Shown here in pieces: positions 9,822 through 33,210 of a DNA stretch of 64,000 nucleotides. Location: UHGV virus genome UHGV-1682877, one strand, 5' to 3'. Numbering within the stretch: position 1 is the first letter of the stretch; each line of letters begins with the position of its first letter. Origin of the DNA: a virus. The translations under genes and the position numbers were made by a program. Under the pieces are notes generated by a model, which had not been told where the DNA came from, did not search any database, and was given only the letters and a program-made list of their open reading frames with translations.

Positions 9822-10182
9822 AAAAGATTATTATAAAAAAATTCTCCAACATTTTGGAGATAATTGCCCAGAATCAGAAATGATTAGAAATTTCCTTGAA
9901 AATGAAATTATGTTGCTTGATAGAAAAACAGAGTCTGCAAAGTTAAAAGCTATTGAAGCAAAAGAAAAAGGTGATGAATTGCGCGAACAGATTTATGACA
10001 TTTTGCCCAGCTGCGAGGAAAATCCCATCCCTGTTTCTAAAATAAAAGAAATTTTAAATAATGATTTAATTACTTCTCAAAAAATTTCTGCACGTTTAAC
10101 TCAGTTATTTAAATTAAACAAAATTGAGAAACAAGAAATTTCTTTTGAAGGTCAGAAAAAGACTGGATATAGAAAAATTTAA
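9805..10182 (+). CDS. hypothetical protein
   Basis: 125-aa ORF; TAAGGAG SD. Confidence 0.55.
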   Translation: MKKMTKKDYYKKILQHFGDNCPESEMIRNFLENEIMLLDRKTESAKLKAIEAKEKGDELREQIYDILPSCEENPIPVSKIKEILNNDLITSQKISARLTQLFKLNKIEKQEISFEGQKKTGYRKI

Positions 10183-11236: not shown

Positions 11237-11962
11237 ATGAAACTAAATAATTATGATTATAGATTTTTAAAAAAGTTGTTACAGTCTACACAGCATGAAC
11301 TATTAGAATTTTTACCCAAAGCGCTTAATGCCATTTACCATAAAGAAGATATTATTATTACCAATAATTATATTTGCGCTAAAGGTGATATCCCAGTAGC
11401 TTTAGTTGCTCATTTAGATACCGTATATCCAGAACCACCTAAACAGATTTTTCATGATCCAGAATATAATATTATTTGGGGAACAAATGGTTTGGGTGCA
11501 GATGATAGAGCAGGCGTTTTTGCTATTTTAAATATTTTAGAATGTGGCTATAAGCCTACTGTAATTTTTTGTTGCGATGAAGAAAATGGCGGTTTAGGTG
11601 CTTATCAACTGACTAAAGATTTTTCAAAACCTTTCACCAATTTTGAAATGCTTATTGAGCTAGACCGCCAAGGAACAAAAGATGCAGTATATTATTCATT
11701 AAATAACACTGATTTTGAAAATTATATCAATAATTATGGATTTGAAACTGCGGTAGGTGTATTCACAGATATTTGTATTCTAGGCCCAATTTGGGATGTT
11801 CCCGCAGTTAATCTTTCTGTTGGTTATTTTAATGAACATAGTTATGCGGAAATGCTTTATTACCCAGCTTTATTTGATACTATTGATAAGGTTTGTTTAA
11901 TTTTAGAAGAAAAGAGGACAAAAGACTTTGAATTTACAGAAATCACTGGAAGCAGCAATTAA
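11237..11962 (+). CDS. Zn-dependent peptidase-like protein (M20/M28/M42-type motifs)
   Basis: AHLDTV and GADDRAGV resemble the metal-ligand motifs of co-catalytic zinc aminopeptidases; only 241 aa, so possibly a truncated or non-catalytic homolog. Confidence 0.45.
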   Translation: MKLNNYDYRFLKKLLQSTQHELLEFLPKALNAIYHKEDIIITNNYICAKGDIPVALVAHLDTVYPEPPKQIFHDPEYNIIWGTNGLGADDRAGVFAILNILECGYKPTVIFCCDEENGGLGAYQLTKDFSKPFTNFEMLIELDRQGTKDAVYYSLNNTDFENYINNYGFETAVGVFTDICILGPIWDVPAVNLSVGYFNEHSYAEMLYYPALFDTIDKVCLILEEKRTKDFEFTEITGSSN

Positions 11963-14430: not shown

Positions 14431-14648
14431 AGAAATACAATATTTTCTATACTAACCAATCAAAATTACTTGAGAGATATTACTACCTAAACTTCACTCT
14501 TAAAAAGAAGGTTCATAGGTGAGGTTCACGGATGGGTCACAAGGCTACGGCTTAACCAAGAAGATAAAACGCCTTTCGCTGAAGAGCGAAACATAAATAC
14601 TAAGGTTCAATGATTGGTGACTTCTAAAATCGAAAAAGAACCTTATAT

Positions 14649-14724
14649 AGTGTTGTAGCTCAGTAGGTTAGAGCCAGCGACTTATAATCGCTAGACGTGG
14701 GTTCAAATCCCAACAGCACTACCA
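14649..14724 (+). tRNA. tRNA with anticodon TAT (Ile-type, reads AUA); CCA encoded
   Basis: Hand-folded cloverleaf: acceptor agtgttg/cagcact, D-stem gctc/gagc, anticodon stem agcga/tcgct with loop cTTATAa, T-loop ttcaaat. Confidence 0.7.
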
Positions 14725-14955
14725 TTAATAATTTAAATGTAATAAAAGTTTGATGTATACAAATGTTGCGTCATTTGAATCCCTCCCTTTGCTACAATCA
14801 ACGTTTGATTTACATTTGGAAAAAGTGATAGAAAATCACATGGAATTACTTTTAGCCAACCGAGTATCAATGTTATTAACTAAAACTTTTTCACTTTTAT
14901 ATTAACTTTTAAATTATATCTTTTAGTTTGCGGTCTAAATTGTAAAACCGCATAT

Positions 14956-15033
14956 GGCACTGTAGCCCAATCGGAAGCAGGCAGTAGACTTAAAATCTAT
15001 TCAGTGTGGGTTCGAGTCCCATCAGTGCTACCA
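14956..15033 (+). tRNA. atypical tRNA: anticodon TAA (Leu-type) but short variable loop; CCA encoded
   Basis: Acceptor ggcactg/cagtgct, anticodon stem gtaga/tctat with loop cTTAAAa, T-arm gtgggttcgagtcccat identical to Leu(TAA) at 25100; identity uncertain. Confidence 0.55.
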
Positions 15034-15179
15034 TCACAGATTGTTGTGCGATTTAACTGTGTTAAATAAATTAAAATCGCGTTGCACAGTTCTTCCTTTA
15101 AGGAGTAGTTATGTTATATAATGAATGAACTAAAAAATTAATACTATGTTAGAATTGTATTAATTATTAAAAATTTTGG

Positions 15180-15215
15180 TTGACTTTAATTAATAAATAT
15201 GTTATAATATTTATA
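15180..15215 (+). promoter_or_regulatory. sigma70-like promoter (-35 TTGACT 15180-15185, -10 TATAAT 15203-15208)
   Basis: Consensus -35 with 17-bp spacing. Confidence 0.65.
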
Positions 15216-15234
15216 TAAGATTAACCAAAGAAAT

Positions 15235-15316
15235 GTTGGATTGATGGAATGGTAGACATAGTAGCCTTAGAAGCTACCGCGTAAGCGTAAGAGTTCAAGT
15301 CTCTTATCCAACACCA
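15235..15316 (+). tRNA. tRNA-Leu (anticodon TAG), type II with long variable arm; CCA encoded
   Basis: Acceptor gttggat/atccaac, D-loop gaatggtaga, anticodon loop cTTAGAa, variable arm cgcgtaagcgt, T-arm aagagttcaagtctctt. Confidence 0.8.
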
Positions 15317-15340
15317 TTAGACAGACACAGCAATCTTTAT

Positions 15341-15410
15341 ACAAGTAACGACATGCAGGTTCGATTCCTGTCTTTACGCATCTGTAAAGTAGCCTATTGG
15401 TAAGGTATTT
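15341..15410 (+). ncRNA. tRNA-like element without canonical cloverleaf (T-arm gcaggttcgattcctgt, then closed hairpin ctttac/gtaaag, then D-loop-like tattggtaa)
   Basis: T-arm consensus present but no acceptor or anticodon pairing could be found; same architecture as the element at 26395-26520. Confidence 0.3.
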
Positions 15411-15442
15411 ATTTTGTTTAAAGCTGTCTAGTAAATCTCAAT

Positions 15443-15485
15443 TTGAAAAATAAAAAAAATTATGATATAATATTTATAGAAAGTT
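15443..15485 (+). promoter_or_regulatory. sigma70-like promoter (-35 TTGAAA 15443-15448, extended -10 TGATATAAT) with leader
   Basis: 17-bp spacing. Confidence 0.6.
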
Positions 15486-15497
15486 GAGGTTGATTTA

Positions 15498-15623
15498 ATG
15501 TTTTATTGGGATTCCTTTGATTGTGAAATTCAGTCTGATGAAATTGGTAGTATTACTAATCAGGAGAATGAATATGAAGAAACAGAAGAACAAGAATTTA
15601 TGGGCGAAAAAGAGTGGCGATGA
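15498..15623 (+). CDS. hypothetical small acidic protein (41 aa; weak)
   Basis: ATG 8 nt after GAGGT SD that follows the promoter; competes with the Lys-rich track ORF 15517..15726. Confidence 0.35.
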   Translation: MFYWDSFDCEIQSDEIGSITNQENEYEETEEQEFMGEKEWR

Positions 15624-15711
15624 ACTTCAAGAGTATTTGCAATTTCGCCGCAGAGGTAGTAAAGTAAAACCTAAAAAGGGCAAAGGTTCCTTTAAAAGAA
15701 AAAAGAAATTT

Positions 15712-15788
15712 GGATCCATAGCGTAATTGGTTAGCGCAACGGACTGTTAATCCGTGGGTTGTTCGTTCAAGTCGAACTGGATCCGCCA
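15712..15788 (+). tRNA. tRNA-Asn (anticodon GTT); CCA encoded
   Basis: Acceptor ggatcca/tggatcc, anticodon stem acgga/tccgt with loop cTGTTAa, T-arm gttcgttcaagtcgaac. Confidence 0.85.
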
Positions 15789-15801
15789 TATATTTTAATT
15801 A

Positions 15802-15877
15802 GCTCCTATCGACAAGTTGGTTAAGTCGCTAGCCCTTCAAGCTAGAGTCGCGGGATCGTAGCCCGCTAGGAGTACCA
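15802..15877 (+). tRNA. tRNA-Glu-like (anticodon TTC), non-canonical T-loop; CCA encoded
   Basis: Acceptor gctccta/taggagt, anticodon stem ctagc/gctag with loop ccTTCaa, T-arm gcggg-atcgtag-cccgc. Confidence 0.55.
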
Positions 15878-15956
15878 TAATGAAAGACACATACAGCAAT
15901 TTATTTAATATTATAAAAAATGGCAGAAAATTTTTATACAAGTGTCTTGTTTATAT

Positions 15957-16013
15957 ATTGCAGGCAGGTTAAAGCCCTGTGCGTCGCTGGTTCAAATCCA
16001 GCCTGTGATACCA
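15957..16013 (+). ncRNA. tRNA-like mini-element (T-arm gctggttcaaatccagc plus short hairpin; no D-arm found)
   Basis: T-arm consensus and terminal CCA seen, but no full cloverleaf could be built. Confidence 0.25.
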
Positions 16014-16014
16014 T

Positions 16015-16087
16015 TGCGGAGTAGAGAAACGGTTATCTCGCAACCCTCATAAGGTTGAGAAAGGTGGTTCGACTCCATCCTCTCGCA
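16015..16087 (+). tRNA. tRNA with anticodon CAT (Met or lysidine-Ile2 type)
   Basis: D-stem gaga/tctc, anticodon stem caacc/ggttg with loop cTCATaa, T-arm ggtggttcgactccatc; acceptor pairing imperfect, so ends are approximate. Confidence 0.6.
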
Positions 16088-16209
16088 GAGACATAATCAA
16101 CCACCTCCACGCGGTATGTCTTGGGTAAAGCGAACGGTTGAATGATTTTGGGTACATTTGGATAATTTAGTAGCCAAAAAAACTCCATAATATAATGGAG
16201 GGATGTATA

Positions 16210-24792: not shown

Positions 24793-24987
24793 ATGAATAA
24801 GATTATTTTTAAAGCTAAGAATTGGACTATGACTTTTAGAACTAGACAGCAAGCCCTTAATTTTATCCGTAAAAATTCCATTAATCCTTATACTGCCAAT
24901 ATTTTGGTTCTTATTGGTACTCAGGATGTATTTCATTTGGGTTCTCCTCGTGCAGATCAGTATTTTGGACTGAAAAGAAAAAATTGA
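24793..24987 (+). CDS. hypothetical protein
   Basis: 64-aa ORF; AGAGGAGAA SD. Confidence 0.5.
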   Translation: MNKIIFKAKNWTMTFRTRQQALNFIRKNSINPYTANILVLIGTQDVFHLGSPRADQYFGLKRKN

Positions 24988-25025
24988 AAATTTAAAAAAA
25001 ATATGATATAATATTTAAGGAAAGA
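24984..25025 (+). promoter_or_regulatory. promoter of tRNA array 2 (-35 TTGAAA 24984-24989, extended -10 TGATATAAT)
   Basis: 17-bp spacing. Confidence 0.6.
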
Positions 25026-25099
25026 CTTGTACAGCAAATAAAGCTTAAAAGCACTTGACTGGTAATCAAGAAGAAAATGAGTCTTGCTTAAATATTCAT

Positions 25100-25185
25100 G
25101 TGGGCGTGATGAAATAGGAAAACATATCGCACTTAAAATGCGCTGCTAATCTAGCTTGTGGGTTCGAGTCCCATCGCCCACACCA
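25100..25185 (+). tRNA. tRNA-Leu (anticodon TAA), type II; CCA encoded
   Basis: Acceptor gtgggcg/cgcccac, anticodon loop cTTAAAa, variable-arm hairpin gcta-atc-tagc, T-arm gtgggttcgagtcccat. Confidence 0.7.
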
Positions 25186-25250
25186 TCTTTAAAACTGATA
25201 CTCTTTACTATTAGTTTTAAAGATAACAATGAACTTGAGTTTACTGATAT

Positions 25251-25327
25251 GCGTCTGTAACTCAACTGGATAGAGTAACTGCCTTCTAAGCAGTAAGCCA
25301 GGGGTTCGAGTCCCTTCAGGCGTACCA
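25251..25327 (+). tRNA. tRNA-Arg (anticodon TCT); CCA encoded
   Basis: Acceptor gcgtctg/caggcgt, D-stem actc/gagt, anticodon stem actgc/gcagt with loop cTTCTAa, T-arm aggggttcgagtccctt. Confidence 0.8.
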
Positions 25328-25329
25328 AG

Positions 25330-25512
25330 CAGAACTATAATAGGCAACAAAAGGAAATAGCTGATGTGAAAGGCATCTTGTCTTGCTGACATGACAATAA
25401 ACTTTGAACGGGCGTATAATGCGTATCGTGCCTGCGGGTGTAGAGTCAGAAAAGTAGGGGAATAATTGAGGAGCAGCTATAGGTGAGGCCCCACCTCCAC
25501 CTTCCTTAATAT
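25330..25512 (+). ncRNA. GC-enriched non-coding segment between tRNA-Arg and tRNA-Ser; candidate structured RNA of unknown class
   Basis: No + strand ORF with SD; several GC-rich hairpins such as aggtgagg-cccc-acctccacc. Confidence 0.3.
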
Positions 25513-25604
25513 GGGGCAATGGCAGAGTTTGGCTTATTGCACTTGTCTTGAAAACAAGCAAACTAGCAATAGTTTCACTGGTTCAAATCCAGTTTGCCCC
25601 GCCA
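25513..25604 (+). tRNA. tRNA-Ser (anticodon TGA), type II; CCA encoded
   Basis: Acceptor ggggcaa/ttgcccc, anticodon stem cttgt/acaag with loop cTTGAAa, long variable arm, T-arm actggttcaaatccagt. Confidence 0.8.
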
Positions 25605-25608
25605 ATAA

Positions 25609-25682
25609 GCAGGTATAGTTTAATGATAGAACTCTGGACTTCCACTCCAGCGATGCGGGTTTGATTCCCGTTACTTGCTCCA
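25609..25682 (+). tRNA. tRNA-Gly (anticodon TCC); CCA encoded
   Basis: Acceptor gcaggta/tacttgc, anticodon stem ctgga/tccag with loop cTTCCAc, T-arm gcgggtttgattcccgt. Confidence 0.8.
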
Positions 25683-25745
25683 TAAAGATACTCACAGCAA
25701 TTTATTTTTTATAATGGGTATAAAAAAATAAAGTATCTTGTATTT

Positions 25746-25821
25746 GCTAACGTGGCGCAACAGGTAGCGCAGCGGCCTTGTAAACCGCAGGTTAAGAGTT
25801 CAAGTCTCTTCGTTAGCTCCA
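25746..25821 (+). tRNA. tRNA-Thr (anticodon TGT); CCA encoded
   Basis: Acceptor gctaacg/cgttagc, anticodon stem gcggc/accgc with loop cTTGTAa, T-arm aagagttcaagtctctt. Confidence 0.85.
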
Positions 25822-25823
25822 AT

Positions 25824-25899
25824 GGTTCGCTAGTTCATTAGGTAGAACACTTGCCTTTTAAGCAAGATGTGCTGGGTTCAAATCCCAGGCGAGCCACCA
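25824..25899 (+). tRNA. tRNA-Lys (anticodon TTT); CCA encoded
   Basis: Acceptor ggttcgc/gcgagcc, D-stem gttc/gaac, anticodon stem cttgc/gcaag with loop cTTTTAa, T-arm ctgggttcaaatcccag. Confidence 0.85.
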
Positions 25900-26274
25900 T
25901 TAGTCTTATCATACAGACGTAAAATAAATGAGTACCCCAGATAATGCTGAACTGGGTATCCGGGTATCGGGAGAATTAGTCTGGCAACTGTTGAAGCGAC
26001 GATACTGCGTGACCAGGCATAAGGGCGACCTAAGTCGTTAGCTATGGGTAAACAGGTTGATAGCCGCATAGTAAAATGTTTCCTTGCGTCATTAAAATGC
26101 AAGGCGTTATAGGAGAGACGGCGGAGCATTACTCATCTCCACTCCTTCTGCTACGAGAAGTAGAAAATCAAGGCTTCTGAGAAATGCTAATGAGAATGGT
26201 CAACCTCTGATTAAAAAAGGACTAAAGCTAGCTTAGGTTTTAGGTTATCCTCCTTACGAGGGAAAACCTTATTT
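25900..26274 (+). ncRNA. approximately 375-nt GC-enriched non-coding segment between tRNA-Lys and tRNA-Leu(CAA); candidate structured RNA of unknown class
   Basis: No credible + strand ORF; GC content visibly above surroundings; not tmRNA-like and lacks RNase P P4 motifs by eye. Confidence 0.3.
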
Positions 26275-26358
26275 GCCAGAATGTTGGAATTGGTAGACAA
26301 AGAAGTCTCAAAAACTTTCGCTTTATGCGTGCGGGTTCGAATCCCGCTTCTGGTACCA
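26275..26358 (+). tRNA. tRNA-Leu (anticodon CAA), type II; CCA encoded
   Basis: Acceptor gccagaa/ttctggt, D-loop gaattggtaga, anticodon stem gaagt/acttt with loop cTCAAAa, variable arm cgctttatgcgtg, T-arm gcgggttcgaatcccgc. Confidence 0.8.
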
Positions 26359-26394
26359 TTATATTTTTAAATTATTTATAAAGACCTTAACAGC

Positions 26395-26520
26395 AAAGAC
26401 TTGGACAGTAAATCCGTAGCTTAAAGTTGCGCAGGTTCAAATCCTGCCCTCCACACCATATGTGGAGGTAGAGAAGTGGTTAAACTCCGCGGAACCAAAA
26501 ACAAATGGTCTAGGAATTAT
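26395..26520 (+). ncRNA. candidate Y-RNA-like ncRNA with permuted tRNA-like module, immediately upstream of Ro60-like gene
   Basis: T-arm gcaggttcaaatcctgc (26431-26447), closed acceptor-like hairpin cctccaca-cca-tatgtggagg (26448-26468), D-arm-like gaga-agtggttaaa-ctc (26471-26487); terminator-like hairpin at 26522-26541. Confidence 0.35.
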
Positions 26521-26570
26521 TTCTCTCTTGCCTAAGAGAGAAAACTAAAAAACAAAAGGAGAAAGTTATT

Positions 26571-28094
26571 ATGGAAAATAAGATGCTTAATATTTTGAAG
26601 GAAAAGAATACTCATTCTATCACTGAGAACGGCGGTTTGACTTATAATTCTACTATGAATGGAATTATGGATTTGTTTGCTCTTGGTGGTGCTTATCGAA
26701 ATCGCTCAGATGATGATTGTATTTTTCTTTTTAAGAAGGCTTTTGAGGAAGATATTTCTTATGCTTTGAAGTGTCTCTTTTATTTGCGAGACGTACGCGG
26801 TGGACAGGGAGAACGCAGATTTTTTAAGGTCGTAACTTCTTGGTTGGCAGTTAATCACACCGAGGAAATGCGTAGAAATCTGAAGTATGTTCCTGAGTAT
26901 GGTCGCTGGGATGATTTGTATGCTTTTGTTGATACTCCGCTTGAGGCAGATGCTTTTAAGACTATGTATCATCAGCTTGCTCTTGATGTTCAGTGTAAAA
27001 CTCCTTCTCTTTTGGCTAAGTGGTTGAAGTCTGAAAATACTTCTTCTGCAGAATCTCGTATGCTTGGAGCTAAAACCAGAATGGCTTTTAATATGTCTCC
27101 TAAGCAGTATCGCAAGATTCTCTCTATTCTTCGTGAAAGAATTAGAGTTTTGGAAAGACTGATGAGTGAAAACCGTTGGGATGAAATTGAATTTGATAAG
27201 ATTCCTTCTAAGGCAGGTCTAAAGTATCGCAATGCTTTTGCAAAGCACGATATTGAAAGAGAAAAGTCTAATAAGGTAACTTATGAAGAGTTTGTAAAGG
27301 ATTCTAATACTAAGGTCAATGCTGATACTTTGAATCCCGCAGATGTAGTTCATGCTGTTGTTTCTAAATTTCCCTATTATAGAGGAAATTTTAATGGAAC
27401 TGATGTGGAGAGAGCTGCACTCAATAAGTATTGGGATAATCTAAAGGATTATTTTAATAATGCTGTTTTTGACGGTGTTGCTGTCGTTGATACTTCTGGT
27501 TCTATGTGTGGTTTTTATGGTAGTGAGAAAACTATTGCACCTATTGATGTAGCTATTTCTCTTGGTATGTATTGTGCTGAGAAGTGTAATCCCAATTCTC
27601 CCTGGTATGGACATTATATTACTTTTTCCCGAACTGCAAGATTGGTACCTGTTGAAGGTATTGATTTTGTTGATAAGGTGCGTAGAATTTATCAAAAGAA
27701 TCTTTGTGAGAATACCAACATTAAAAGTATTTTTGATTTGCTATTGAGCAATGCTATTAAATATAATATTCCTAATGAAGAAATGCCTAAAAACATTGTA
27801 ATCATTAGTGATATGGAATTTGATTATTGCGCTGGTTACTATAATAGTGATGAATACAAGTCTGAAATGGAAAAGATTATGCAAGTTTGGAACTCTCATG
27901 GTTACACTACTCCACATTTGATTTTCTGGAATGTTGACGCTCGAAATGATAATATTCCCATGAAGATGAAGGATGGTATTACTTTTATTTCTGGTTATTC
28001 TGCGGTAACTTATGAAATGTTGATGACTGGTAAAACTGGTTTTGATTTGGTTTTGGAAAAGTTGAACAATAAGAGATATGAGGTAATCAAGTAA
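26571..28094 (+). CDS. vWA-domain protein with Ro60/Rsr-like (TROVE + vWA) architecture
   Basis: 507 aa; MIDAS-type VVDTSGSM about 300 aa from N-terminus; N-terminal ENGGLTY ... LGGAYR resembles TROVE start; AAAAGGAGAA SD. Confidence 0.5.
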   Translation: MENKMLNILKEKNTHSITENGGLTYNSTMNGIMDLFALGGAYRNRSDDDCIFLFKKAFEEDISYALKCLFYLRDVRGGQGERRFFKVVTSWLAVNHTEEMRRNLKYVPEYGRWDDLYAFVDTPLEADAFKTMYHQLALDVQCKTPSLLAKWLKSENTSSAESRMLGAKTRMAFNMSPKQYRKILSILRERIRVLERLMSENRWDEIEFDKIPSKAGLKYRNAFAKHDIEREKSNKVTYEEFVKDSNTKVNADTLNPADVVHAVVSKFPYYRGNFNGTDVERAALNKYWDNLKDYFNNAVFDGVAVVDTSGSMCGFYGSEKTIAPIDVAISLGMYCAEKCNPNSPWYGHYITFSRTARLVPVEGIDFVDKVRRIYQKNLCENTNIKSIFDLLLSNAIKYNIPNEEMPKNIVIISDMEFDYCAGYYNSDEYKSEMEKIMQVWNSHGYTTPHLIFWNVDARNDNIPMKMKDGITFISGYSAVTYEMLMTGKTGFDLVLEKLNNKRYEVIK

Positions 28095-29585: not shown

Positions 29586-29604
29586 ATAAAGGAGTTTGAT
29601 ATTT

Positions 29605-30873
29605 ATGGCATACTATGGTTTAGTAACTAAAATTGAAAATGTAAGAAAAGACCCTAATTCTGATAGACTCTATTTGGCTGATTGTTTTAGAGAAGGAGTT
29701 ATTGTAGGCCCTAATATGAAGGAAAGCGAGTTGGTTCTTTATCTTCCTACTGATGGAGCTATTGAGCGTTGGTTTGGTGATGAGTTTAAACTTTTCCGCA
29801 AGAATTTAGATGGTACCGCGCAAGGTGGTTATTTGGAAAATAATGCTCATATTAGAGCAATTAAGCTAAGAGGTAATGAATCTTCTGGTATTGTTATTTC
29901 TTATTCTACTATTGTTGAGCATTTTGGTGAGCAAAATTGGAAAGATGGCGATCAGGTCACTGAAATTAATAATAAGCTATTTTGTTATAAATATATTCCT
30001 AAACCTTCGGCTATTCCTCGCACTACTCCTAAAACTTCTTATAAAGGTCGTAAAGCAGCTGGAATTAAGTATCCTGATTTTGCCATGCATATTGATACTG
30101 CCCAATTAGCTTACAATCTTGGAATTTTTAGACCTGGAGATAAAATTAATCTAACCCTTAAAATGCATGGAACTAGCCAGCGTAGTGCATATACTTGGGC
30201 AGAATATCCTATGTCTTGGTTTAGAAAGCTATTTCACATGAAACCTAAGAGAAAGTTGCAGTATGTTTTAGGTACTCGTAGAACTGTTGTTACTACTGAT
30301 GGGGTAGGTTATTATGGTAATGACAAATTTAGATTTAGTCACCATGAAGCTTTAAAACCTTATCTCGATGAAGGTATGGAAGTTTTTTATGAAGTAGTTG
30401 GTTGGTATGGAGCAAAAGAAAATGAAACTATTATGCCAATTGTAGATAATAGTAAAATTAATGACAAGAAATTTATGAAAAAGTTTGGTAAGTATACTAC
30501 TTTTTCTTATGGTTGTACTCCTGGTCATTCTGCAATGTGGATTTATAGAATTACTTCTCATAATGGTGAATATGAATATTCTCCAGAGGAAATTACTACT
30601 TGGTGTAATGAATATGGTTTTAATCGTGTTCCTATTATTGAGGATTTTGAATTTACTACTGTTGATGACTTGCTCGCTAAAATTGACAAATATTTTGAAG
30701 ATATTGTTGACCCAGTTGGTTTAACTCATGTTAAAGAAGGTGTAGTAGTTAGAATTGCTAATAGACGTACTTTTACTGCATTAAAACAAAAAACCTGGGA
30801 GTTTAAAGTCCTTGAAGGTCTAGTTAAAGATACTGAAACCCAGCCCGATATGGAAGAAGCACAGGAGGTTTAA
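29605..30873 (+). CDS. ATP-dependent RNA ligase-like protein (Rnl2/Rnl5-type KxHGT motif) with N-terminal extra domain
   Basis: KMHGTS resembles nucleotidyltransferase motif I of T4 Rnl2 (KIHGTN); N-terminal region has OB/tRNA-binding-like motif IKLRGNESSGIV; ATG 29605 after AAAGGAG. Confidence 0.5.
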   Translation: MAYYGLVTKIENVRKDPNSDRLYLADCFREGVIVGPNMKESELVLYLPTDGAIERWFGDEFKLFRKNLDGTAQGGYLENNAHIRAIKLRGNESSGIVISYSTIVEHFGEQNWKDGDQVTEINNKLFCYKYIPKPSAIPRTTPKTSYKGRKAAGIKYPDFAMHIDTAQLAYNLGIFRPGDKINLTLKMHGTSQRSAYTWAEYPMSWFRKLFHMKPKRKLQYVLGTRRTVVTTDGVGYYGNDKFRFSHHEALKPYLDEGMEVFYEVVGWYGAKENETIMPIVDNSKINDKKFMKKFGKYTTFSYGCTPGHSAMWIYRITSHNGEYEYSPEEITTWCNEYGFNRVPIIEDFEFTTVDDLLAKIDKYFEDIVDPVGLTHVKEGVVVRIANRRTFTALKQKTWEFKVLEGLVKDTETQPDMEEAQEV

Positions 30874-30875
30874 AT

Positions 30876-31325
30876 ATGACTTTAGAAATTATGCACAATG
30901 ACATGATGCAGGCTTTGAAGAATGGTGATACTCAAAAGAAGAATGTACTTTCCAATATGATTGGTGAAGTACAAAAAGCAGCAATTACGCCAAAAGGCAG
31001 AATTGAAATTACCGAAGAGCTTGTTAATAATACTTTAATCAAGTATCAAAAGATGATTCAAGAAATGATTGATACTTGTCCAGAAAACCGCAAAGAGTTA
31101 TTTATTCAATATAATCTTGATATGGCTGTTGTAAAGCAGTATGCACCACAACTTCTCACTGACAAAAAAGCAATTAAAACTCAAATTGAAAAGATGCTTG
31201 CAGAAAATGAGCTTGATGCAATTAAGGCAAATAAAGGTAGAGCAATGAAACTTTTTGCTCCTGTTTTTAAGGGTAAGGCAGATATGAAAATTGTTAATCA
31301 AATTGTGTCGGAGGTAATGACCTAA
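30876..31325 (+). CDS. GatB/YqeY-domain protein
   Basis: N-terminus and length typical of YqeY-like proteins; CAGGAGG SD. Confidence 0.45.
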   Translation: MTLEIMHNDMMQALKNGDTQKKNVLSNMIGEVQKAAITPKGRIEITEELVNNTLIKYQKMIQEMIDTCPENRKELFIQYNLDMAVVKQYAPQLLTDKKAIKTQIEKMLAENELDAIKANKGRAMKLFAPVFKGKADMKIVNQIVSEVMT

Positions 31326-31326
31326 T

Positions 31327-31506
31327 ATGTTTCATTTAATAATGACGATTATTTGGGGTATCTTAATGTGTGTTAATGGAGTTTTGCTATGTGAAACAAT
31401 TTTACACAATAGATATAAAGAAAAGAAAATGCGTATTTTCTGGTTCCTTTTTTGCGTATTTTGGTTTATTTTTGAAATCTTGCGGCTCGGAGGCTTTATT
31501 CTTTGA
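31327..31506 (+). CDS. hypothetical small membrane protein (59 aa)
   Basis: ATG 1 nt after previous stop; two hydrophobic segments. Confidence 0.4.
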   Translation: MFHLIMTIIWGILMCVNGVLLCETILHNRYKEKKMRIFWFLFCVFWFIFEILRLGGFIL

Positions 31507-31721
31507 AAATTGTAATTGATAAAAAAGATTTTATGGAATATATTCGTGCTATGGTAGATAAGGATTTTGACAATTTTATGTTTGCAAATCCTTATGCGAC
31601 GAAAGAAGATTATATTAATTTATATTATTCTTTTGATACAATTCATAATTTAGATGATATTTGTGAAGAAGAATATTGTAAAAGAATTATTAATGGTGAA
31701 ATAGAAGAAATTGAAGATTGA
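31503..31721 (+). CDS. hypothetical protein (TTG start)
   Basis: 72-aa ORF; acidic. Confidence 0.4.
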   Translation: MKIVIDKKDFMEYIRAMVDKDFDNFMFANPYATKEDYINLYYSFDTIHNLDDICEEEYCKRIINGEIEEIED

Positions 31722-31725
31722 AAGA

Positions 31726-31770
31726 ATTAAGGGCAAAGATTAAGATCTTTTGCCCTTAATTTATTTTTTT
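31726..31770 (+). terminator. rho-independent terminator (ttaagggcaaaagat / atcttttgcccttaa + T-run)
   Basis: Read directly. Confidence 0.7.
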
Positions 31771-31805
31771 AAAAATTTATATTATAATATATATAGAAAG
31801 TTAAG
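31762..31805 (+). promoter_or_regulatory. sigma70-like promoter (-10 TATAAT 31783-31788) with leader
   Basis: Family consensus. Confidence 0.55.
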
Positions 31806-31821
31806 AAAGGAATTGATATTT

Positions 31822-32535
31822 ATGAATAAGAGTAAAGTTTATTGTTTTACTGACCTTCATGGCAATTCAAATTTGTTTAAGCAGATTAAAAATTTCATTC
31901 AAGCAGAAGATAAAGTGTTCGTGCTGGGTGATGTAATTGACAGAGGGACAGAAGGTTGGAAAATACTTAAAGAAATTTTAAAAGATGAAAGATTTACTCT
32001 TCTTAAAGGAAATCATGAACAAATGTTAGTAGATTCTGGAAGAGAATTTTTAAAAAATGAAAGATGTCTATATGGAGATGATATTTATCGTCACATGAAT
32101 AATGGAGGTTTATCTACTTTACTAGACTGGTCTAAAGAAAAAAATGCTATTGAGTATTTAAATTTAATTAATAAACTTCCAGTTTATGAACAATACACTA
32201 ATAAAAATGGAATTAAAATTCATTTAAGTCATGCAGGTTTTTCTCCTAATAATATTTCTGGTGATGAATTTGATTTTCTTTGGAATAGATTACATTATAA
32301 ATTTAGATGTTTAATTAATCCAAATGAATTAATTATTCATGGCCATACCCCAATTCCTCTAATGATAGAAGATATAGGAGAATTTCGCAATCCTCCCAAA
32401 TATGAAGGTGGAGCTTGTTGGTATAATAATAATCAAAAGGTTAATCTTGATTTAGGTACTCATTGGAGTAAGCAAATTATCCTTTTTGATTTAGATACTT
32501 TTGATGAACATATCTTTTCTGCTCAAGGAGAATAA
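31822..32535 (+). CDS. calcineurin-like metallophosphoesterase
   Basis: TDLHGN, GDVIDRG and GNHE motifs; internal ATG of track ORF 31750..32535 follows AAGAAAGGA SD. Confidence 0.7.
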   Translation: MNKSKVYCFTDLHGNSNLFKQIKNFIQAEDKVFVLGDVIDRGTEGWKILKEILKDERFTLLKGNHEQMLVDSGREFLKNERCLYGDDIYRHMNNGGLSTLLDWSKEKNAIEYLNLINKLPVYEQYTNKNGIKIHLSHAGFSPNNISGDEFDFLWNRLHYKFRCLINPNELIIHGHTPIPLMIEDIGEFRNPPKYEGGACWYNNNQKVNLDLGTHWSKQIILFDLDTFDEHIFSAQGE

Positions 32536-32537
32536 TT

Positions 32538-32942
32538 ATGATACTATTAATACTAGGATTAACATTACCTTTTACTGGAGCAATAATTTTAGGTTGTTTT
32601 ATATATGATTATGATGAATATAAACTAGATTGTAAAATTGTAAGGAAACATAAATATGTAGTTTTAAAATTAAAAGAATTTATTTCTTTCTATAATTTAA
32701 GTCCAGAAAATTATGAACTACAAAAATATTCGGTTGTTTTTTTAAAGCCTTTCTCTACACGAAAATATTTAACAGACAATAATATACGTATTATTTTTAC
32801 AAATTATGTAGAAATGTTAAAATATAAAATTTGGAAAAAGACAGAAATTAAAAAAATAAATACAGAAAAAGAAAGAAAAGAACTTAAAGAATATTTTGAA
32901 ATTGTAAAAAAACAAATTGAGGAGTTTGATAAAAATGTCTAA
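32538..32942 (+). CDS. hypothetical protein
   Basis: 134-aa ORF; AAGGAGAA SD. Confidence 0.55.
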   Translation: MILLILGLTLPFTGAIILGCFIYDYDEYKLDCKIVRKHKYVVLKLKEFISFYNLSPENYELQKYSVVFLKPFSTRKYLTDNNIRIIFTNYVEMLKYKIWKKTEIKKINTEKERKELKEYFEIVKKQIEEFDKNV

Positions 32943-33210
32943 AGACCCTAGAAAATATGAAATGCATGATTTTTATTGTATGAATTGCGGAAAGAAGTCA
33001 ATGTCAATTCCTCGATTAAGAGGACGTTTTAGAGAAGTTGGGCATAAGAAAGTTATGTATTGCCCTCATTGTAAAGAAACTGTTAATATGGTAGAATGTA
33101 GAAATGATGAAGAAGCGTATAATTTTAAACTAGATTTTGAAGAAGGACTTTTTAAAGAAGAAGCACAAAATAGTATTTCTTATGTAAAGGAGTTTGGTAT
33201 TTATGATTAA
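32917..33210 (+). CDS. hypothetical zinc-ribbon protein
   Basis: CMNCG ... CPHC. Confidence 0.5.
   Translation: MRSLIKMSKDPRKYEMHDFYCMNCGKKSMSIPRLRGRFREVGHKKVMYCPHCKETVNMVECRNDEEAYNFKLDFEEGLFKEEAQNSISYVKEFGIYD

Follow-up and report, generated by a model that had tools for sequence, protein, structure and literature searches.

In Y RNAs, Ro60 takes a helix-and-bulge module, and the remainder of the RNA engages an effector (PMC4201824; PMC12135203; 10.1101/312249). The YrlA RNAs, Y RNAs of bacteria and phages that include a tRNA-like domain, are bound by Ro60/Rsr (PMC4201824; 10.1101/312249); modification by TruB and DusA is a further mark of that group. In metazoan Y RNAs, Yrn1 of D. radiodurans, and the Y RNAs of Thermus phage phiLo, the Ro60 site is a conserved bulge motif by the terminal helix (PMC12135203). 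Y RNAs that mimic tRNA are already known. Here we analyzed a 64,000-nt stretch of the virus genome UHGV-1682877 (hereafter, the window) and two tRNA-like elements on its + strand, element 1 (positions 15318-15431) and element 2 (15957-16013). The original prediction, made from the letters of the window, had treated both as the same kind of thing; our analysis separates them into a Y-RNA-like gene and a tRNA remnant. Element 1 belongs, over its full length, to a conserved family of structured RNAs: a covariance model of that family matches it from end to end with 66.8 bits. For the pair as a whole, we consider it fairly probable that element 1 is a Y-RNA-type gene with a mimic of the tRNA elbow and that element 2 is the product of replacement by a homing endonuclease.

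With 30% G+C, the window is AT-rich; it is phage-like, and virtually all of its genes are on the + strand. Its tRNA arrays span 14649-17659 and 25100-26358, with 17 tRNAs identified by ARAGORN in total, 16 of which pass the Rfam gathering score; both elements lie in the first array. A strict scan for T-arms (a 5-bp stem closed by G-C with the loop TTCRANY) identified 15 in the window, all on the + strand, versus a mean of 0.095 in shuffled sequences with both strands taken together. Twelve of these T-arms are inside ARAGORN tRNAs, and the three outside belong to element 1 (15355-15371), element 2 (15986-16002), and an element at 26381-26513 beside a Ro60-like gene (26431-26447). All of the sequences originally quoted for the two elements are present at their positions. 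In standard, relaxed, and intron modes, ARAGORN called nothing at either element, in agreement with the predicted lack of a canonical cloverleaf; in relaxed mitochondrial mode, the sole call was a poor mtRNA-Phe(aaa) at 15934-16012, around element 2. Using the Infernal tRNA model, we obtained no match for element 1 and 21.2 bits for element 2, below the gathering score of 29. Ordinary cloverleaves at both sites are excluded because ARAGORN calls none and the Rfam tRNA model stays below threshold.

Element 1 is 114 nt long and consists of a platform plus a tRNA-elbow mimic. We use "platform" for a 7-bp terminal helix and an adjacent single-stranded ACAGCAA on its 5' side. The 5' strand of the helix, TAGACAG (15318-15324), pairs over 7 bp with 15424-15430, and the 3' strand CUGUCUA together with a conserved trailing G occupies 15424-15431. 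The heptamer ACAGCAA (15327-15333), which belongs to the motif AGAYN4ACAGCAA, is a predicted 5' bulge or internal loop, and each of its positions is unpaired in 65-78% of constrained folds. Enclosed by the platform are a T-arm (GCAGG-UUCGAUU-CCUGU, 15355-15371), a closed acceptor-like hairpin of 7 bp including a terminal G-U (CUUUACG-CAUC-UGUAAAG, 15372-15389), and a segment at 15390-15406 that contains a UA linker (equivalent to U8) and the D-arm GCCU-AUUGGUA-AGGU (15392-15406) with equivalents of A14 and G18G19. This core had been recognized in the original prediction, as had the identity of its order (T-arm, closed hairpin, D-arm) with that of the element at 26381-26513, but the framing terminal helix and ACAGCAA had been overlooked. 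Element 1 starts 1 nt past the CCA of tRNA-Leu(tag) and lacks a promoter of its own. Its sequence is identical in a 99.3% sister strain (locus L243). A probe of the contig of a closely related phage (locus L001; 98% protein identity and 95-97% DNA identity over aligned blocks) with the exact 26-mer from the tRNA-Leu 3' end gave 0 matches for an element 1 homologue, and a blastn search of GenBank phages in distant mode with 14600-17700 as the query returned generic tRNA matches and no relative.

The family was traced with the protein encoded at 26571-28094, which retrieved 80 loci from IMG/VR (52-98% identity, contigs mostly 100-200 kb). Within these loci and the window (1.46 Mb), AGAYN4ACAGCAA occurs 98 times on the strand of the gene and 0 times on the opposite strand; nearly all copies are closed by a complementary strand. 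Platform elements number more than 200 in related gut and rumen phages, and their helix has the general form (U/A/G)AGAYNN paired to NNRUCU(A/U/C), with a conserved G coming next. Over 70 unique copies, positions 2-4 are fixed (A-U, G-C, A-U), whereas position 1 is A-U in 50 copies, U-A in 12, and G-C in 7; position 5 is C-G in 63 and U-A in 7; and all four Watson-Crick pairs occur at position 6 and five pair types at position 7. Variants with AGGC/GCCU add covariation at position 4, making it the fifth covarying position of the helix. The inserts between the platform strands are of four kinds: simple hairpins (55-80 nt); permuted tRNA-like modules that have a T-arm, a closed acceptor hairpin, and a D-arm, in some cases with an anticodon arm as well; tRNA-like sequences in normal order wrapped by a platform; and larger inserts.

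We aligned 18 non-redundant elements of the permuted type from other phages, none of them from the window, with the platform, T, acceptor, and D helices imposed on the alignment. In this alignment (A2), 96.4% of paired cells are compatible with pairing, versus 68.1% in shuffles and 31-42% with slid partners, although the 18 sequences were chosen by a parser requiring three helices, which inflates the pairing percentage. Both sides change in 17 of 23 pairs (covariation score 0.79 versus 0.21), and in the acceptor hairpin 7 of the 8 modelled pairs vary on both sides. Invariant columns include the equivalents of U8, A14, G18/19, G53, U54, U55, C56, A58, and C61, as well as AGAC, ACAG, and GUCU-G in the platform.

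With R1, the covariance model built from A2, we searched the whole window with filters off. The match to element 1 covers model positions 1-114 (E = 3e-14), and the parser-based selection of the training set does not inflate the score of this untrained copy. A match of 27.6 bits at 15986-16051 (model positions 36-101) was rejected as a tandem-tRNA artefact that combines a T-arm with the D-arm of the next tRNA; the same artefact produces 18-22 bits at other tRNA junctions in the window. In 42 loci from the genome collection, R1 returned 27 matches at E <= 1e-4, all on the strand of the gene. The original suggestion that element 1 is Y-RNA-like is borne out by its full-length membership in this covarying family, to which the element at 26381-26513 also belongs. 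Direct comparison with the YrlA model (RF02553) was less clear: Infernal aligned element 1 end to end (15325-15432), but the 26.6 bits lie below the gathering score of 69. Relatives score 25-44.5 bits, and 26381-26513 gave no YrlA match at E <= 1. Rfam 15 has no family matching the platform, and a full-text literature search returned no description of the platform RNA family; the family is widespread and apparently undescribed.

The window holds seven platform copies (starts at 15318, 15884, 16848, 17241, 25022, 25685, and 26381; all on the + strand), confined to the two tRNA arrays, with the layout (A/T)AGAYNNN, 1-2 bases, ACAGCAA, a variable insert, NNNRTCT(T/A), and G. Across the loci, a tRNA 3' end lies no more than 10 nt before the start of the element in 63 of 168 cases, and the next tRNA begins no more than 10 nt after its end in 60 of 159; platform elements are therefore arranged as tRNAs are in an array. 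The copy with the highest R1 score (76.0 bits over 26396-26513, E = 1.6e-16) is the permuted tRNA-Tyr-like element at 26381-26513, located 58 nt upstream of the Ro60-like gene. Its parts are, in order, an anticodon-like loop, a variable arm, a T-arm, an acceptor hairpin with a loop starting ACCA, and a D-arm. In L001, the stretch corresponding to 26365-26515 is absent as a clean indel (around 9945-9952), and therefore platform elements are gained and lost as units.

Three of the other copies are of the hairpin type. The one at 15884-15949 (AAGACAC AU ACAGCAA ... GUGUCUU G; 35.3 bits) is just upstream of element 2 and is conserved in L001 and L243; the one at 25022-25086 (31.8 bits) contains an anticodon-arm-like CUUGA-CUGGUAA-UCAAG and begins approximately 10 nt past a promoter-like TATAAT; and the one at 25685-25740 (56 nt, 32.5 bits) lies between tRNA-Gly and tRNA-Thr. 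A copy of 162 nt at 17241-17402 (21.6 bits) has no tRNA-like domain. The copy at 16848-16962 (33.9 bits) wraps a normal-order tRNA-like sequence at 16876-16948, which has an 8-nt anticodon loop, is reported by ARAGORN as "tRNA-???" (tgaa), scores 53 bits with Rfam tRNA, and is conserved in relatives (625-700 in L001); it could be a frameshift-type tRNA or a non-decoding tRNA mimic.

Promoter-like boxes of the form TTGAAAA..N..TATGATATAAT are repeated between RNA genes (15440-15470, 24650-24690, 24725-24770, and 24985-25015), and one is directed straight into the platform element at 25022. Between tRNA genes, two relatively G+C-rich stretches free of open reading frames (ORFs), 25328-25512 and 25900-26274, align to L001 blocks with 96-97% identity; neither has an Rfam match. 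The second was considered as a large structured RNA and rejected, given the missing Rfam match and a folding z-score of -0.38. A platform-like TAGTCTTATCATACAGACG is included at 25900-25920.

Among the hairpins carried as cargo with a 5-bp stem and a 7-nt loop, 90 of 253 have the anticodon-loop signature YU-NNN-RN versus 8.4% expected from composition, a comparison to be read alongside a reverse-complement control in which AT-rich loops meet the signature on both strands. The commonest loop is CUUUUAA, that of tRNA-Lys UUU, which is displayed on covarying 5-bp stems in 12 diverse copies of hairpin-type elements. Other displayed loops are CUGGUAA, CUGCUAA, and CUGUUAA. Exact signatures were noted at 25022-25086 of the window and at other loci, including L087, L115, L127, L057, L202, and L205.

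Platform RNAs are associated with the Ro60-like gene. In 122 loci selected by protein, the motif occurs 126 times on the strand of this gene and 0 times on the opposite strand. Among loci with 20 kb or more of sequence, 35 of the 45 viral ones and 10 of the 15 from genomes contain at least one exact motif. Even at 37-43% protein identity, platform copies adjoin the gene: an element lies 68 nt upstream of it in L241 and another ends approximately 400 nt upstream in L233, and in L242 (39% identity) five tandem elements are directly downstream (11397-11959), with no tRNA between. Each of these tandem elements is trailed by a GGUACA...UUAGAU spacer, and one is of a "minihelix" type, with a T-arm and an acceptor hairpin that has ACCA in its loop. 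We also searched IMG/VR with a 15-mer of the DNA motif, without using protein information and with a short stretch visible per locus. The Ro60-like gene appeared in 20 of 62 stem-closed loci, always on the same strand, versus 1 of 58 unclosed loci, which represent chance or coding occurrences (Fisher p = 5e-6).

The gene at 26571-28094 (+ strand) encodes a protein with Pfam domains DUF2828 and DUF7788, which were the only Pfam matches even at E <= 10; TROVE was not among them. PDB sequence searches with phmmer and hmmsearch gave no Ro60 match, and PHROGs labels the protein "RNA-binding protein" (phrog_850). AlphaFold2 produced a model with a predicted local distance difference test score (pLDDT) of 74 and a predicted template modeling score (pTM) of 0.62. 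The top 11 Foldseek matches to this model are all Ro60/TROVE structures (E = 2e-8 to 2e-4, roughly full length), including those of Thermus phage phiLo, Xenopus, human, and D. radiodurans, and vWA domains come next. The model has the helical-repeat ring and C-terminal vWA domain of Ro60/TROVE proteins. Template modeling (TM) scores to Ro60 structures are 0.29-0.44; because these values are modest, we describe the protein as Ro60-like in predicted fold, which falls short of a demonstrated Ro60 orthologue. Together, the results suggest that DUF2828, which has members in plants as well, is a Ro60-type RNA-binding protein family.

A hairpin lies just 5' of the ribosome-binding site of the Ro60-like gene (26520-26541) and occupies the same position before the start in most of loci L001-L080, where the sequence changes and the pairing is kept (tctctcttgcctaagagaga, cctcttgtccaagagg, ctcccttgtccaagggag, ggtcttgataaagact, and gccttgtaaaaggc). 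Its helix, AAGAS/STCUU plus G, resembles the terminal helix of the platform closed at the opposite end, and the hairpin may be an autoregulatory mimic of the RNA site of the protein.

The genes that follow the Ro60-like gene include a set for RNA end-healing and sealing (29596-36186). It comprises an RNA ligase (29596-30873), a YqeY-like protein (30876-31325), a metallophosphoesterase (31750-32535), a PSTK/Pnkp-like P-loop kinase (33194-33706), a second metallophosphoesterase (33709-34251), and a PIN plus PhoH protein (34915-36186). In phages, the known role of such sets is to repair tRNAs cut by host anticodon nucleases (PMC2610378; PMC7824862).

From these observations we infer a possible course of events. 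Element 1 would be transcribed with the tRNA array and freed by tRNA end-processing enzymes, since platform elements are laid out like tRNAs in the array. The platform would then be bound by the Ro60-like ring protein encoded at 26571-28094, the tRNA-like cargo would engage a tRNA-binding factor as a tether or decoy, and the resulting ribonucleoprotein (RNP) may serve the repair set encoded after the protein gene. The family as a whole may thereby act as a handle with which the Ro60-like protein presents parts of tRNAs to factors that recognize tRNA, whether as a decoy, a tether, or a repair guide.

Several points weigh against this reading, in addition to the parser-selected training set mentioned above. 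The proposed binding of the platform by the protein draws on genomic association and analogy, and the analogy with Ro60 and Y RNAs could fail at the step of recognition because GNCGAAN0-1G is absent from 15318-15431, 15884-15949, and 26381-26513, and because the partner is a DUF2828/DUF7788 protein rather than a Pfam TROVE protein. Element 1 lies 11.1 kb upstream of the Ro60-like gene instead of adjacent to it, and its folding energy is modestly better than that of shuffles (z = -2.0).

Element 2 has a different history. This 57-nt element without a D-arm is present in the window and L243 only. Its T-arm (GCTGG-TTCAAAT-CCAGC, 15986-16002) is followed by CTGTGAT, A, and CCA ending at 16013, so that the T-arm, CCA end, and drawable D-armless fold of the original prediction all stand; a 7-bp acceptor pairing (AUUGCAG/CUGUGAT) had been overlooked. 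The complete drawing consists of the acceptor AUUGCAG/CUGUGAU, a stem GCAGG/CCUGU with the loop UUAAAGC, GCGUC, the T-arm, A, and CCA. In the acceptor, 15957-15963 pairs with 16003-16009 (including two G-U pairs), and the 5-bp stem directly abuts it.

At the exact site of element 2, the 98% relative L001 has an intact tRNA-Met(CAT) (524-596 in L001, starting TGCAGGCAG) that follows the platform hairpin (15884-15949 in the window) after 9 nt; the earlier option of a decayed tRNA gene fits this element. The window matches L001 through TGCAGGCAG (15959-15967) and breaks at approximately 15968-15970, and identity resumes at 16845, just before the next platform element. Based on BLAST and alignment, the segment at 15968-16845 (+ strand) replaces bases 10-73 of the L001 tRNA-Met, and a search of the window for the 3' half of the L001-type tRNA-Met found none. 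The replacing 875 nt contain 44 nt from the 3' part of a tRNA (15970-16013), another tRNA-Met(CAT) (16015-16086, + strand; ARAGORN, 48 bits with Rfam), and a GIY-YIG homing endonuclease gene (16195-16842, + strand; Pfam PF01541, E = 2.6e-12; PHROG homing endonuclease families, E = 1.6e-26). The variable loop and T-arm of element 2 match the tRNA-Met(CAT) of locus L168, which looks initiator-like, at 22 of 22 nt. An intact gene at the site in L001 and a break that coincides with a cassette carrying an endonuclease ORF are what a replacement scar consists of. The replacement would have joined the first 9 nt of the resident tRNA-Met to the 3' 44 nt of another tRNA, namely part of its anticodon arm, the variable loop, the T-arm, the 3' acceptor strand, and ACCA.

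The sister strain L243 has the same cassette and an identical element 2. It also has a 151-aa ORF in the anticodon loop of tRNA-Ile(tat) (743-1228 in L243; approximately 14686 in the window) and a 153-aa HNH ORF in tRNA-Leu(tag) (1398-2054; approximately 15250), where the D/anticodon region is partly duplicated. These interrupting ORFs are either introns or free-standing homing cassettes, and the first tRNA array is a hot spot for endonuclease invasion.

The likeliest reading of element 2 is a recombination remnant that has no function and an incidental D-armless fold. A functional 57-nt D-armless mini-tRNA-like RNA, kept by selection, is the alternative that retains some plausibility, although we think it unlikely; such an RNA could mimic part of a tRNA or be a substrate of a CCA-adding enzyme or an aminoacyl-tRNA synthetase. 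In favor of this alternative, the T-arm of element 2 is perfect, its ACCA is encoded, its 7-bp acceptor is abutted by a 5-bp stem with a 7-nt loop that has U33, its sequence is identical in L243, and a cut by RNase P at the next tRNA-Met, 1 nt downstream, would make its 3' end. By our own estimate, the chance of such pairing is approximately 0.003, allowing for three registers, and the element is more ordered than a random junction should be; junction microhomology (GCAG) would account for the inner stem, though not for the pairing of the acceptor. No donor of the cassette was found either: the GIY-YIG protein has no match in IMG/VR, and metagenomes yielded L243 and one 32% homologue without tRNAs. 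Both the order and the missing donor count against a simple replacement. However, an ordinary tRNA-Met occupies the site in L001, the break falls inside the putative stem, and in the minimum-free-energy fold the T-arm is lost to a 10-bp helix. The anticodon read from the loop would be AAA, which bacterial and phage tRNAs are not known to use. The Rfam tRNA score noted above is reached only with a 34-nt insert. The exact 28-mer of element 2 had 0 matches in IMG/VR, a homologue of the fragment was found only in L243, and the searches gave no diverged homologue with which to look for covariation. Two other pairings for element 2 were rejected. The acceptor in the Infernal alignment, AUGGCAG (15920-15926) with CUGUGAU, spans the 34-nt insert and pairs at 6 of 7 positions, the remaining one being a G-G mismatch; chance alone would give approximately 1.3 matches of this quality, and the L001 sequence is AUGGCAU. 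ATCACAG at 15034, considered as the 5' half of a split tRNA, is a 7-mer expected approximately four times per strand by chance.

For the platform elements, a role as maturation signals or spacers read by a host or phage RNase, with incidental tRNA-like inserts, seems improbable to us. The elements do sit in tRNA arrays at tRNA-like spacing, and some wrap normal tRNAs, such as the one at 16848-16962. RNase III needs a helix longer than 7 bp, and the platform helix is too short for it; in addition, the invariant ACAGCAA and trailing G suggest sequence-specific recognition by a protein. The tandem elements of L242 follow the Ro60-like gene with no tRNA between them, the element at 25022 starts at a promoter, and the association with the gene persists in loci picked by DNA motif alone. 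Processing as the main role, one of the options originally listed, is not supported.

We give very little credence to the idea that the two elements, together with platform copies in general, are tRNA pseudogenes in decay or repeats resembling miniature inverted-repeat transposable elements, with 7-bp terminal inverted repeats and no RNA function. Presence does differ between close relatives (the 26365-26515 indel in L001), and the terminal repeats are inverted; however, the repeats covary rather than being conserved, the copies keep without exception to one strand with respect to transcription (126 to 0), and tRNA tertiary nucleotides are invariant while the helices change by compensatory substitution. 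Least credible of all is that element 1 is a circularly permuted tRNA gene in the style of Cyanidioschyzon merolae that yields a working tRNA through a circular intermediate: its 3' half (T-arm, acceptor 3' strand) does precede a loop and the 5' half (acceptor 5' strand, D-arm), and other family members have full anticodon arms, but element 1 has no anticodon arm, its CAUC loop lacks CCA or discriminator context, its ends carry the conserved non-tRNA platform, and no splicing-endonuclease pathway is known in bacteria (10.1101/312249), and the earlier options of a split tRNA or a permuted gene giving a working tRNA are not supported.

Returning to a Y-RNA-type function, a more general version can be put forward tentatively, with the balance of probability against it: the AGAC helix and ACAGCAA may be a general docking handle for a divergent Ro60-like ring protein (DUF2828/DUF7788), used to display a library of tRNA parts as decoys, capture probes, or repair guides. 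The library would then include elbow-only mimics (15318-15431), anticodon stem-loops alone (often CUUUUAA), and whole permuted tRNAs. Its targets would be host defence nucleases that act on tRNA, or damaged tRNAs brought to the ligase, kinase, and phosphatase, and gut and rumen phages would possess a modular, RNA-programmed counter-defence RNP. The family is multi-copy per genome, its cargo can be as small as an anticodon arm alone or as large as a whole tRNA, and because the cargo is modular, its function may lie in recognition by tRNA-binding factors; pairs of cargo and host factor become testable.

The setting of element 2 can be compared with the homing endonucleases of phage tRNA clusters. 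SegB of phage T4 is a GIY-YIG enzyme encoded in the T4 tRNA region and a free-standing homing endonuclease. As in such systems, the window has a GIY-YIG gene among tRNA genes and an allele replacement relative to a close relative, and further endonuclease ORFs interrupt other tRNA genes in L243; unlike in those systems, the junction leaves a foldable mini-tRNA. Homing endonucleases churn phage tRNA arrays, and the tRNA-like debris left behind should not count as novel RNAs. An acceptor, anticodon arm, variable loop, and T-arm can be drawn in element 2 as in D-armless mitochondrial tRNAs, but the likeness is one of drawing only: homologues are lacking, the anticodon would be AAA, and the ARAGORN acceptor is different and poor.

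Element 1 shares with the permuted tRNA genes of C. merolae and some archaea (10.1101/312249) the order of 3' half before 5' half and a closed acceptor loop. Those genes mature to canonical tRNAs by bulge-helix-bulge splicing, whereas element 1 has a non-tRNA platform and no anticodon arm. Class I RNAs of Dictyostelium (RF01414; PMC7919456) resemble the phage elements in their short 5'/3' stem, CCUUACAGCAA directly 3' of the 5' strand, variable middle, and conserved 3' end (CUGU in the Class I RNAs and GUCUUG in the phage elements). Both groups contain the heptamer ACAGCAA (platform motif ..UACAGCAA, 15885-15949 in the window), but the Class I RNAs are eukaryotic and bound by Rnp1A, a protein with an RNA recognition motif. 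Homology was rejected on one weak match (18.6 bits versus 41.5) and none in three further loci; the likeness is most likely chance or convergence.

The metazoan Y RNAs, Yrn1 of D. radiodurans, and Yrl1 and Yrl2 of phage phiLo (PMC12135203) share with the phage platform a stem-bulge-stem architecture and a bulge motif next to the terminal helix, but that motif is CGAA or GGUCCGA in these Y RNAs and ACAGCAA here. In phiLo, as in the window, the Ro60-type protein is encoded by the phage; the phiLo protein is, however, a recognizable TROVE protein.

Lastly, the phage family has the order of parts seen in YrlA, with a protein-binding module on the 5'/3' terminal stem and then, in turn, the T-arm, the closed acceptor stem-loop, and the D-arm. 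As in YrlA, element 1 contains a circularly permuted tRNA elbow with conserved tRNA tertiary nucleotides, and the genes share a strand with a Ro60-type gene, often next to RNA ligases, with several Y RNAs per genome possible. The differences, beyond the YrlA model scores given above and the non-TROVE partner, concern the protein site, gene placement, and cargo. GNCGAAN0-1G, the presumed Ro60 site (PMC4201824), occurs in 0 of 70 unique phage elements, which have the AGAC helix and ACAGCAA instead. YrlA is present as one or two copies within 4 kb of its gene, whereas there are up to seven per 64 kb here, dispersed in tRNA arrays as far as 11 kb away. YrlA lacks an anticodon loop (10.1101/312249), whereas many members of the phage family have a true anticodon arm or that arm only. 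The phage family realizes the same idea with another protein-binding handle and with a protein that Ro60 sequence profiles miss, and it is a new variant within the Y-RNA/YrlA kind of RNA, tied to a Ro60-like DUF2828 protein.

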